In this document: in pieces, positions 296-3,640 of the stretch | How the letters are laid out: each line of letters starts with the position of its first letter | How positions within the stretch are numbered: the stretch's first letter is position 1 | Assembly: GCA_965224245.1 (NCBI GenBank) | Contig: OZ245046.1 | Location: 2,464,001-2,528,000 of the forward strand | DNA from: Candidatus Eiseniibacteriota bacterium | GTDB lineage: Bacteria > Eisenbacteria > RBG-16-71-46 > CAZAMP01 | Reading direction: 5' to 3' | DNA length: 64,000 bases | The notes under the pieces: generated by a model | Told to the model about the DNA's origin: nothing | The model's database searches: none | The model's input: the letters and a program-made list of their open reading frames with translations, nothing else | Position numbers and translations under genes: made by a program

Positions 296-2071
296 ATGCT
301 CGACCGCCCCAGGCCGCCTCGTCCACCGCGGACACGCGGCGCGTGGATCGGCCTCTCGCTCGGCGCCCTCCTGGCGCTGGCAGGGCCGGCGTCACGACCC
401 GCGGCGCTCGCCGAGACCCTCACTCTCACCCCCGAGTGGTCGGTCGACACCGGCGGATGAATCTTCGCCAACCCCGAGGTCTCGGGGGATCGGGTCTACG
501 TCGGATCGTGCAACGGGCGGTTCCAGTGCCGCGACCTCACCGACGGCTCGATCCGGTGGAGCTACGACGTCAGCGCCGACGGCGAGGCCCGGAGCTTCCA
601 CGGGAACATGCTGCTCCAGAAGAACGTGATCCTCGTCGGCACCGACCCCGAGGACGGCTACCTGTACGCGTTCGACCCGCAGACGGGCGAGGTACGCTGG
701 AAATGGTGGGCCGCTCCCGGGATCGGTACCGACCTGGTCGCGGGGCCCGATCTCGTCTACGCGGTGACGCTGGACGACGTGCTCGTGTGCCTCGACCTGG
801 AGACCGGCGCCGAGCAGTGGCGCAGCGTCCCCGAGACCACCGTCAGCTCCATGCTCACGCGCGGATCCACCCCGGCGCTCGAGGACGAGACGATCGTCTT
901 CGCCGGCGTGGCGGGCCGCGTCCAGGCGCTGGACGCGCGGACCGGCGCCGCCGGGTGGTCCACCGAGGTCGGGGGGCCGGTGACCACGTCGGTGGCCCTC
1001 CATCGCTCACGAGCGCTCGTCGGAACCGAGGCCGGCGTGCTCCACGCGCTCGATCGCACCACCGGGACCGTCCTCCGTTCGGTGTCGCTGCCCGGCTCGC
1101 CGCGCGGCGAGATCGTCACGACCGAGGCGGGGCTGGTGGTGCTCGTCGGCGAGGACGGCTGGCGAGCACGGCTGGTCGCGCTGGACGACGATCTGACCGT
1201 CGCGTGGGAGAGTGTCGCCACCGACGGCTCGCTCTGGACGAGCGCCCGCCCGACGCGAGCGGGCCGGTGGATCCTGGTCGGCACGGCCAGCGGCGAGCTG
1301 GCCGCGATCTCGTCCGACACCGGCGAGACCGACTGGACACTCCCGATCGAGCCCATGCGCGACTGGACCGGGGACGGCATCCGGAGCGCCTCCATCGTCG
1401 CCGGCCGCCTCATCGTGGGCACGATCGCCGGGCGACTCACGTCGTATCGACTCCCCCCGGAGATCCTGGCCGGGGCCGGGCCCGTTCGGCGGCCCCGCCC
1501 GCGTCCGGTGGCCATGGCGCCCACGTGAGCCGGCTGACCCGGCGAAGGGTCGCCGCTTCGGGGAAGCGGCCTGGATCACGACTGGACGGTCTCGCTGCGG
1601 TACGTGGATACCGGAACCGATCGGGCTCGCTGGCGTTCCACGATCAACCGGCGCGTGCTGCCGACGCTCTCGCTCGGGATCGAGTTCAACCCGGTCGTCG
1701 GCGAGGTCGGTCCGCTGGTCACGTGGTTCTTCGTCGGTGAGGGGCATGGCACACCCGCCGTCTTCGTCGGCACCAGCTCCGATCGGATCGGAACCGACGA
1801 GGGCGAGCAGAGCTACTACGCGACGGCGACCAAGCGGCTGCCGTGGTGGCCGGTCTCGGCCTACGTGACCGCCAACTACTCCGAGGCGGACGAGTCGTTC
1901 AACGTGCCCTTCGGGGGCACGATCAACCTCACCGAGACGCTGTCGATGCGTCCGATGTACGATGGCGAGCGCACGCATCTGATGGCCACGGCGGCCACCG
2001 AGCGGTTCGCGGTGTCGCTGATCGCAGTCTGGCTGGAGCGGGTCGGCGTCTCGGTCTCCACGGGCTTCTGA
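296..2071 (+). CDS. Predicted exported multi-selenocysteine protein: PQQ/BamB-like beta-propeller + UxxU linker + C-terminal beta-barrel-like domain (591 aa if all three UGAs are read through)
   Basis: ORFs 14..460, 608..1528 and 1604..2071 share one frame and are separated only by TGA at 458, 1526 and 1535. Signal peptide from ATG 296. The propeller repeat continues across TGA458 (WSVDTGG-U-IFANPEVSGDRVYVGSCNG). SECIS-like hairpins follow each TGA. Protein ends in ...VSTGF. Confidence 0.8.
461..490 (+). promoter_or_regulatory. Bacterial SECIS-like hairpin for UGA 458-460
   Basis: Stem CCCCGA (472-477)/TCGGGG (482-487) with apical loop GGTC (478-481) starting 18 nt after the UGA. Same loop sequence and nearly the same spacing as the E. 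coli fdhF SECIS. Confidence 0.8.
1540..1570 (+). promoter_or_regulatory. Two overlapping SECIS-like hairpins for the UxxU codons 1526 and 1535
   Basis: Hairpin A: CGGCGA-AGGG-TCGCCG (1540-1555), loop 18 nt after the first UGA. Hairpin B: GCCGCTTC-GGG-GAAGCGGC (1552-1570), loop 23 nt after the second UGA. Confidence 0.7.
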
Positions 2072-2769: not shown

Positions 2770-3004
2770 CTCGACCGGGCCCCGGTAGGCCGCCACCGGG
2801 GCGCCCCCCGGCGCTCCCGCGAGGCTCGAGGTCGTCCGGGATCCCCGCAGCGTCCCCAAACCGCTCATCGGTAAGCATTTGCCTCAAAGCTGAGGATCGT
2901 TATATTCTGAACCGACGCCGAGCGGCGATGGGGGTCGTGTGGGCGGTACGGTCCGCACTCCGGGCGACGCGCGTTTGCCGCTGGAGACGCCGCAGGAGAG
3001 CCCG

Positions 3005-3640
3005 ATGTCCGCCGCCGCCGCTGATCTACCTCCATGGATCCACTCGCTGCCGGTTGCGATCTGGGTGTCCGACGAGCACATGCGCCTGTCGTACGTCAAC
3101 GAGGCCGCAGAGCGTCTCTTCGAGATCACCGGCGACGTCGTGGGCTGCCACTGCTTCGAGATCGTGCGCGGCCGCGACGCAAGCGGAGCTCCGTTCTGTC
3201 GCCCCGACTGTCCGGCGGCGGCCGCGATTCGTGACGGGTGCGCGAACGACGGCTTCGATCTCAAGATCGGTGACGGGGTCGGATCCTGGACGCGCGTGTT
3301 CATCGCTCCGGTCGCGGGTCGCTCGTCGCGGCCGATCATTCACTTCGCGGTCCCGATGCAGCGCGAGCACTGCGCCGAGGACTTCGTCGAGCGCGTCGCG
3401 GAGCGGACCCGTGCCGCGTCCCAGGCTCGACTCGACGCGCTCACCGACCGCGAGAAGGAGATCCTGGCACTTCTGGCGCGCGACAAGACGGCACGAGTGA
3501 TCGCCGACGAGCTGGCCATCAGCTATTCCACCGTTCGCAATCACATCCAGCACGTGCTGACGAAGATGGACGCGCACTCGACCCTGGAAGCGGTCGCGTG
3601 CTGGGTGCTCGCGACCGCCGTCGTGTCCGGCGAGGAGTGA
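3005..3640 (+). CDS. PAS-domain LuxR-family transcriptional regulator
   Basis: PAS-like YVNEAAERLF with Cys cluster; C-terminal LTDREKEIL...IADELAISYSTVRNHI HTH; AGGAG RBS. Confidence 0.88.
   Translation: MSAAAADLPPWIHSLPVAIWVSDEHMRLSYVNEAAERLFEITGDVVGCHCFEIVRGRDASGAPFCRPDCPAAAAIRDGCANDGFDLKIGDGVGSWTRVFIAPVAGRSSRPIIHFAVPMQREHCAEDFVERVAERTRAASQARLDALTDREKEILALLARDKTARVIADELAISYSTVRNHIQHVLTKMDAHSTLEAVACWVLATAVVSGEE

Follow-up and report, generated by a model that had tools for sequence, protein, structure and literature searches.

How can two UGA codons only 9 nt apart both be decoded as selenocysteine (Sec), when a bacterial Sec insertion sequence (SECIS) is needed just downstream of the codon? 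This question, raised in PMC13582414, is posed here by a 64,000-nt stretch of contig OZ245046.1 from a Candidatus Eiseniibacteriota bacterium (assembly GCA_965224245.1, positions 2,464,001 to 2,528,000, forward strand; hereafter the window), in which an open frame at 296-2071 carries the motif U-x-x-U (UxxU, U being Sec) ahead of a C-terminal domain. Two hairpins, A and B, overlap just downstream of the second UGA. Our comparison of homologues indicates that hairpin B is the family's SECIS, and we favor, with a probability of about 0.5, the reading that this one SECIS serves both UGA codons. The elements in question are as follows.

296-2071, + strand: selenoprotein gene comprising a signal peptide, PQQ-type propeller, linker, U-A-G-U and barrel (from the single frame and homologues)
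1526-1528, + strand: UGA1 (U411; from the frame and homologue alignment)
1535-1537, + strand: UGA2 (U414; from the frame and homologue alignment)
1540-1555, + strand: hairpin A, CGGCGA/AGGG/UCGCCG, 6 bp; candidate SECIS for UGA1, unproven
1552-1570, + strand: hairpin B, GCCGCUUC/GGG/GAAGCGGC, 8 bp, loop GGG (from covariation, conservation and folding)

Conservation of the double UGA

Translated through TGA, the frame 296-2071 gives 591 residues with U55, U411 and U414; in-frame TGA codons lie at 458, 1526 and 1535, and the terminal stop is the TGA at 2069-2071. A Pro/Arg-rich linker and then P-T-U-A-G-U stand between the propeller and the barrel. Judged by this frame and its homologues, 296-2071 is a genuine selenoprotein gene.

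Scans of the collections genome_contigs and metagenome_contigs gave 156 and 223 relatives, respectively, and 80 were retained from each; with the window's own locus and seven relatives, they made up 168 loci. One of the two scan patterns, PGEG[AS]P[LV][RG]G[SD], favors sequences that keep the peptide encoded by hairpin B; the second pattern and the homology searches are free of this bias. The 168 loci contained TGA-x-x-TGA followed by PGEG in 166 copies, that is, in 166 of 166 that were readable. Two further copies are cut by a contig end, and one otherwise intact metagenome copy (L183:1489) has TAA in place of UGA1, which may reflect an error in sequencing or inactivation of the gene. No Cys codon was found at either UGA position among the copies of the 168 loci. 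Full-length Cys forms were retrieved by a profile search of 1.84 billion representatives, and the C-A-G-C of the distant homologues P0134, P0142, P0156 and P0149 aligned with U-x-x-U. By this alignment, both UxxU positions form a Sec/Cys pair of the classical type, and the proposal of an earlier sequence-only reading of the window that UxxU is a real double-Sec site was borne out. Two database proteins, P0128 and P0225, have W at a family TGA position, probably through a gene caller that translated TGA as Trp; with its C-V-G-W, P0128 may represent a naturally occurring C-x-x-U form.

The C-terminal module with two TGA codons was present in 7 of 40 class-level relatives. In the window's phylum, matches occurred in 44 of 206 genomes (a count that takes in the unpublished genome G053, on which no result rests alone), and 45 of the 46 matches had two TGA codons, the remaining one being a fragment. 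A phylum-wide search with P0128 returned UxxU forms only, 23 of the 24 loci examined being duplicates of earlier loci. The titles of the contigs named Eisenbacteria, Acidobacteriota/Thermoanaerobaculia, Gemmatimonadota, Poribacteria, Methylomirabilota, Latescibacteria, Calditrichia, Planctomycetota and others. One Eisenbacteria-titled contig (L096) carries two family copies, L096:301 and L096:1489, approximately 1.2 kb apart, both with UxxU. Fewer than 100 codons separate UGA1 from the nearest upstream stop in 106 of the 166 copies, and in the short members inspected as examples this stretch consisted of a signal peptide and a Pro/Arg-rich linker. In most members, as far as the frames allow us to judge, the UxxU-barrel module directly follows its own signal peptide.

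If there were no recoding, the TGA at 1526 would be a true stop followed by a separate gene from the GTG at 1604, or TGA would encode an ordinary amino acid. Gene callers split the frame in just this manner: the best 120 of 401 database homologues were 138-173 residues long and started past UGA2. However, conservation in the family is highest over the 12 to 15 codons that surround and separate the two TGA codons, where the Cys forms have C-x-x-C; translated by itself, the downstream piece would give a barrel lacking a signal peptide; and we found no terminator-like or promoter-like site within 1400-2900. TGA is also the commonest ordinary stop of this genome, ending 1886 of 2731 long frames rich in G+C at the third codon position, which speaks against an ordinary amino acid, and the genome has a complete Sec machinery. 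We give hardly any credence to an absence of recoding.

Selenocysteine machinery and other Sec sites

The genome (6.9 Mb, 68.6% G+C) contains selA, selB, selC and selD, all above curated cut-offs. The scores were 515.8 bits for SelA, 353.4 bits for SelB together with its neighbors (cut-off, 242.25), 378.4 bits for SelD and 71.9 bits for tRNA-Sec, which ARAGORN reported as tRNA-SeC(tca) and which was the one RF01852 match above the cut-off. The SelD gene itself holds one in-frame TGA and is thus a selenoprotein gene. One in-frame TGA each was observed in SelD and two AhpC/TSA-like genes (C1:4218211; C1:4920231, minus strand; C1:4156964), with hairpins 9-12 nt past the TGA and loops of GGU, GUU and AGUUC. 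The gene at 296-2071 has a further such site in its propeller.

458-460, + strand: in-frame UGA, U55, in the first propeller blade (frame unbroken from the signal peptide into a PQQ repeat)
472-487, + strand: SECIS-like hairpin for U55, CCCCGA/GGUC/UCGGGG, 11 nt past the UGA (textbook-like)

The PQQ repeats of relatives showed no Sec/Cys pair for U55, with L, V, R, G, P, A, I, K and E at this position. These four sites (selD, the two AhpC-like genes and U55) define a native range in which the hairpin begins 9-12 nt, and its loop 16-20 nt, from the UGA. A genome-wide UxxU scan returned no candidate, but the same scan also missed the window's own UxxU site.

The machinery bears on a second alternative, namely that either UGA1 or UGA2 is translated not as Sec but as Cys, with the help of a tRNA-ReC-like tRNA, or is passed by near-cognate read-through. 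Genes of the tRNA-ReC type are more frequent in genomes with UXXU hydrogenases (PMC13582414), and ARAGORN reported here an odd second tRNA-Cys(GCA) of 80 nt at C1:4940935-4941014, whose anticodon stem has 6 bp and whose D arm is weak. Its 7-bp acceptor stem, its poor D arm and its lack of a long variable arm are nevertheless unlike tRNA-Sec, and we regard it as probably a poor call. The single RF01852 match also argues against this alternative, and the presence of TGA at both places in all 166 copies fits selection for Sec at both. We consider it very unlikely that either codon is read in this way.

Hairpin B shows compensatory changes

Hairpins A and B lie where the earlier reading had placed them, and they have nucleotides 1552-1555 in common. 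Folded alone, they reach -8.6 and -12.5 kcal/mol, respectively. The fold of the region 1520-1600 was not exceptional (z = -0.97; 36 of 200 shuffles were equally or more stable), and its minimum free energy structure contained neither hairpin as drawn. Since the raw fold of the region is unremarkable, evidence beyond chance must come from homologues. Rfam gave no match on 250-2900 at E <= 1.

We compared 145 distinct 60-nt sequences, numbered from the U of UGA1. The helix 27-34/38-45 of hairpin B was paired in 95.4%, and changes on both sides of a pair numbered 36 against 7.2 +/- 2.4 in shuffles, none of 500 reaching the observed value. The pair 33-39 joins the third base of a Leu codon to the third base of a Gly codon, so that its changes are synonymous; it was C-G in 124 sequences, U-A in 17, G-C in 1 and unpaired in 3. 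On a quick tree built without the codons of this pair, columns 33 and 39 changed 7 and 6 times, the pair state changed 8 times, and nt 39 followed nt 33 in 2.8 of 3 supported independent contrasts, too small a number for formal testing. The 7-bp core of hairpin B was intact in 138 of the 145 sequences, and RNAalifold recovered the hairpin. The sequence of nt 34-38 was CGGGG in 141 of the 166 copies, CGUGG in 21 and GGGGG in 4. In a PVGGAG subclass (L019, L057, L129 and L156), inspection by eye indicated a G+C-rich hairpin rebuilt a few nucleotides upstream, with the loop GGUCG in L129 and L156.

The peptide that follows UxxU had been suspected of being constrained at the RNA level. This is supported by the covariation of synonymous sites and by the Cys homologues, which have AGEAR... 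in place of the PGEGAPLRGSG of the Sec forms. Selection at the RNA level has been demonstrated for hairpin B alone, and on this comparative evidence hairpin B is the family's SECIS.

One hairpin or two for the adjacent codons

According to the rule for bacterial SECIS (bSECIS) elements, the loop has 3-9 nt with a G in one of its first two positions, the upper stem has 4-16 bp, the UGA lies 16-37 nt from the loop and the energy is -7.5 kcal/mol or lower (PMC13188914). Hairpin B agrees with this model (loop of 3 nt with G, 8 bp, -12.5 kcal/mol) at the distance of either codon: measured from UGA2, its stem and loop begin at 14 and 22 nt, and measured from UGA1, at 23 and 31 nt. Hairpin A in the window likewise agrees in every item when taken with UGA1 (6 bp, 4-nt loop AGGG, 17 nt, -8.6 kcal/mol); its loop is only 8 nt from UGA2, below the 16-37 nt of the rule, and it therefore cannot serve UGA2.

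In the single-SECIS reading that we favor, both UGA codons would be decoded as Sec by SelB and tRNA-Sec. Hairpin B would already be folded when the ribosome arrives at UGA1, as our thermodynamic modeling suggests, and would act on UGA2 from a near-canonical distance and on UGA1 from 9 nt further, the 12 spare nucleotides being looped out or held in a small stem. On this view, hairpin A would be auxiliary or incidental, largely imposed by the codons for P-G-E-G-A/S-P. The authors of the 2026 UXXU hydrogenase study propose a single SECIS for both codons in that system (PMC13582414). That hairpin B serves UGA1 is our inference from these observations.

The alternative, put forward in the earlier reading, is a relay in which hairpin A is the SECIS for UGA1; as the ribosome moves 9 nt it melts A, and the freed strand forms hairpin B, which recodes UGA2. 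Several observations weigh against a single SECIS. The spacing of an E. coli SECIS is tight. The SelB-binding stem-loop of that species lies 11 nt from the UGA (PMC8659212), and the stem and loop of hairpin A, at 11 and 17 nt from UGA1, fall within the native range (n = 4), whereas the corresponding 23 and 31 nt of hairpin B are far outside it. In the main class of the family, hairpin B is also beyond the native range downstream of UGA2, unlike a compromise site for both codons. Codon usage points the same way: the 5' arm of hairpin A shows a strong synonymous bias towards pairing of nt 15 and 18 with G30 and G27, while the two codons of its loop match the background. Pro codon 5 is CCC in 90% of the sequences, compared with 25% elsewhere in these genes, and the third base of Gly codon 6 is a pyrimidine in 93%, compared with a background of 56%.

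Further support for hairpin A comes from codon 9, which ends in a purine in approximately 94% of the cases in which it encodes Ala (pyrimidine in 6%, against 38% at a control Ala column). In sixteen control columns the frequency of the major third base was 0.39-0.78. Hairpins of the A type averaged -4.83 kcal/mol, as opposed to -2.28 +/- 0.22 kcal/mol in controls with redrawn codons, and the 5-bp core of A was complementary in 101 of the 145 sequences.

However, the compensatory changes that mark hairpin B were absent from hairpin A. Its pairing was 78.3% compared with 77.5% after shuffling, and changes on both sides numbered 8 compared with 6.1, a value reached in 115 of 500 shuffles. The core was interrupted in 44 of the 145 sequences although UGA1 is invariant; the pair 18-27 was unpaired in 36, and A27 occurred without a compensating U18 in all 8 independent tree contrasts. 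By our count, a C.A mismatch lies midway along the stem in 7 of the 12 loci titled Poribacteria, and the sixth pair of A (A-U, 1545-1550) is found in only 5 of the 145 sequences, the window and four others. Gly, Glu, Ala and Pro codons that do not vary dictate three of the five core pairs, which makes the complementarity of A partly forced. Some of the codon bias can also be explained otherwise: the pyrimidine at nt 18 by a 3-bp mini-stem (17-19/24-26) that coexists with hairpin B, and C15 by the CCC/GGG stem of another hairpin, D, described below. Helix C (nt 4-9/27-32), also treated below, is a further structure that could account for the biased sites.

Energetics also favored hairpin B. The consensus hairpin A was -7.4 kcal/mol, just above the -7.5 kcal/mol threshold, which 2% of the 145 sequences reached. 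Forcing A rather than B cost 5.5 kcal/mol on average (5.7 in the window), and A was at least as stable as B in 2 of the 145. With nt 14-60 free, as for a ribosome on UGA1, the median probability of B was 0.98 and the mean probability of A was 0.01; in every ribosome context modeled, including a ribosome on UGA1, the probability of A was 0.00-0.02. Given this mean advantage of 5.5 kcal/mol, B should be folded already at UGA1.

The claim of two SECIS elements therefore stands for hairpin B, in which the covariation looked for in homologues was found, and leaves A a candidate only. Of the relay itself, the native spacing and the codon bias are in place, but compensatory changes and a substantial predicted occupancy are not. 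We regard the relay as possible yet rather doubtful.

An association between GAA and GGG codons was also considered (23 of 44 compared with 13 of 101; Fisher p = 1.5e-6) and was set aside, as the tree contrasts, 4.3 in the same direction and 1.2 in the other out of 13, were not significant.

Other states of the RNA

Another hairpin of the region includes UGA2 itself.

1535-1552, + strand: hairpin D, UGACCC/GGCGAA/GGGUCG, 6 bp, -9.0 kcal/mol; contains UGA2

Hairpin D is compatible with the 7-bp form of hairpin B, and its probability was 0.98 in the free 60-nt sequence of the window. A further possibility is a multi-state RNA in which translation passes the strand nt 27-32 (1552-1557) stepwise among three partners. 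These are nt 4-9 in the two codons that separate UGA1 from UGA2 (helix C), the hairpin A segment nt 15-19 and the hairpin B segment nt 38-45. Until a ribosome reaches the region, UGA2 and B would be masked by a long hairpin spanning nt 4-32. Helix C (nt 4-9/27-32) was paired in 89.8%, and its pairs changed on both sides 15 times, compared with 5.7 +/- 2.1 after shuffling (none of 500 shuffles reached this value); U9 accompanied A27 in 3.0 of 8 contrasts, and the opposite occurred in 0.1; nt 9 was a pyrimidine in 93%; and in the consensus the long hairpin reached -16.6 kcal/mol compared with -14.9 kcal/mol for B. Shuffle tests, however, inflate support among related sequences, the tree contrasts for helix C are too few for significance, and its pair 5-31 is broken in 25 of the 145 sequences, including that of the window. 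G+C-rich GGC/GCC repeats readily yield such alternatives, and no function is required to explain them. The full three-partner scheme appears improbable to us. A relay joined by a third partner strand between the UGA codons, which masks the region beforehand, is a tentative proposal of about the same standing as the relay alone.

The barrel and its partner gene

The domain downstream of UxxU and the next gene are as follows.

1538-2068, + strand: C-terminal domain of 177 residues, predicted outer-membrane beta-barrel of approximately 12 strands with a Gly-Phe end (from the structural model and Foldseek)
2098-2769, + strand: partner gene encoding a YHS domain and a TlpA/ResA-like thioredoxin fold with WCKPC (from Pfam and NCBIfam)

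The C-terminal domain matched no Pfam (E <= 10) or NCBIfam model, and a PDB sequence search with the family profile gave no match. AlphaFold2, using 111 sequences, returned an all-beta model with 13 strands (predicted local distance difference test, 86.3; predicted template modeling score, 0.82). In a Foldseek search with this model, all 11 matches with E <= 0.001 were transmembrane beta-barrels, and KdgM was best by the size-normalized score (TMt, 0.61-0.63). A language-model atlas likewise indicated a barrel for a Cys form, and the last residues, ...STGF, place an aromatic residue at the C-terminus. The domain is thus predicted to be an outer-membrane beta-barrel of approximately 12 strands, as the earlier reading had supposed. 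The KdgM/NanC-type 12-strand porins (4pr7_A, TMt 0.63, root-mean-square deviation 4.2; 4fqe, TMt 0.61) have the C-terminal aromatic in common with the family barrel; however, identity is only 9-12%, and these porins lack the N-terminal UxxU/CxxC segment.

A homologue of the YHS-TlpA partner was present in 119 of 167 family loci, and N-terminal YHS domains were found in 5 of the 7 long Cys-form homologues scanned. In the long Cys forms P0141, P0150, P0158, P0160 and P0151, YHS domains are fused to the barrel. UxxU is probably a redox or metal-handling site that acts with the adjacent YHS-TlpA-like protein, and the UxxU barrel and its partner may together constitute a redox or metal-handling module of the envelope. 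The genetic tie of the barrel to a YHS-thioredoxin partner points to envelope metal or redox chemistry, and the family would place a diselenide-capable UxxU on an outer-membrane barrel, an unusual location for selenium.

Comparison with known systems

In eukaryotes, selenoprotein P mRNA has two SECIS elements that share the work among several UGA codons; these lie in the 3' untranslated region and act at long range, unlike the overlapping hairpins within the open frame seen here. In its general form the present arrangement resembles fdhF of E. coli and the bSECIS type, with a hairpin within the open frame just past the UGA and a small G-rich apical loop. The fdhF element has a bulged U17, G23 and U24 in the loop and a spacing of 11 nt (PMC8659212), a set of features that is not found here: hairpin A has the 11-nt spacing without the bulged U or the loop GU, and hairpin B lies at 14 or 23 nt, lacks the bulge and has the loop GGG, with no G-U in the main loop form. 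A further difference from fdhF is that two UGA codons 9 nt apart share one hairpin region.

The UXXU Group 4 [NiFeSe] hydrogenases resemble the present family in having two UGA codons two codons apart and a SECIS-like hairpin downstream (PMC13582414). The proteins are unrelated, and UXXU and CXXU interconvert in the hydrogenases, whereas all Sec forms found here are UxxU. Listed prokaryotic UxxU selenoproteins include a Prx-like thiol:disulfide oxidoreductase, the metal-binding protein NF041115 and the FmdB family TIGR02605 (PMC13188914, PMC9312934); they share with the present family a UxxU redox or metal motif that is CxxC in Cys homologues, but have folds other than an outer-membrane barrel, and their models gave no match here. 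Among the matches listed, neither those to NF041115 (151 class genomes; one had TAG) nor those to TIGR02605 (41 relatives) contained an in-frame TGA.

UxxU selenoproteins and bacterial SECIS elements are thus already known, and what is new is a barrel family without annotation. The source-given names among the best 120 of the 401 database proteins were "hypothetical protein". The family is absent from the selenoprotein lists in the available parts of two reviews, and the parts of deep-Sep and BSepDB that we saw do not mention PQQ or a propeller. In the literature searched, likewise as available in part, the only barrel selenoprotein was the GSU2204/MtrB family (NF041027), which is a separate family. 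A widespread selenoprotein family has hitherto been invisible to annotation, and its very conserved site, with two explicit candidate hairpins and natural variants, is a natural test case for the decoding of adjacent Sec codons. The relay, if true, would give bacteria their first example of adjacent Sec codons that each have a dedicated SECIS element within the open frame, the two elements being mutually exclusive.

The fused propeller and the downstream frame

The N-terminal part of the window's gene sets it apart from the rest of the family.

296-412, + strand: likely signal peptide, MLDRPRPP...ALLALAGPASRPAALA (translation judged by eye, no predictor)
428-1480, + strand: PQQ/BamB-like beta-propeller, approximate limits (PF13360 and PF13570 matches over residues 53-373)

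Pfam PQQ_2 scored 137.7 bits on the gene product and was, as a general model, the only propeller model to pass its cut-off; the scores for the BamB equivalogs TIGR03300 (109.9 bits against 285.2) and NF008351 (90.1 against 423) were below theirs. The fusion of a propeller to the UxxU barrel is peculiar to the window's genome and occurred in 0 of the 167 other family loci. The suggestion that selenium switches the product between a propeller-only and a barrel-anchored form is consequently not supported as a feature of the family, and in the 106 of 166 short copies a stop at UGA1 would leave only a signal peptide and a linker. A selenium-dependent switch of products may operate in the one fused gene of the window.

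Downstream of the partner gene, the next open frame (2939-3640) appears by eye, from its translation only, to have an end resembling a LuxR-type helix-turn-helix.

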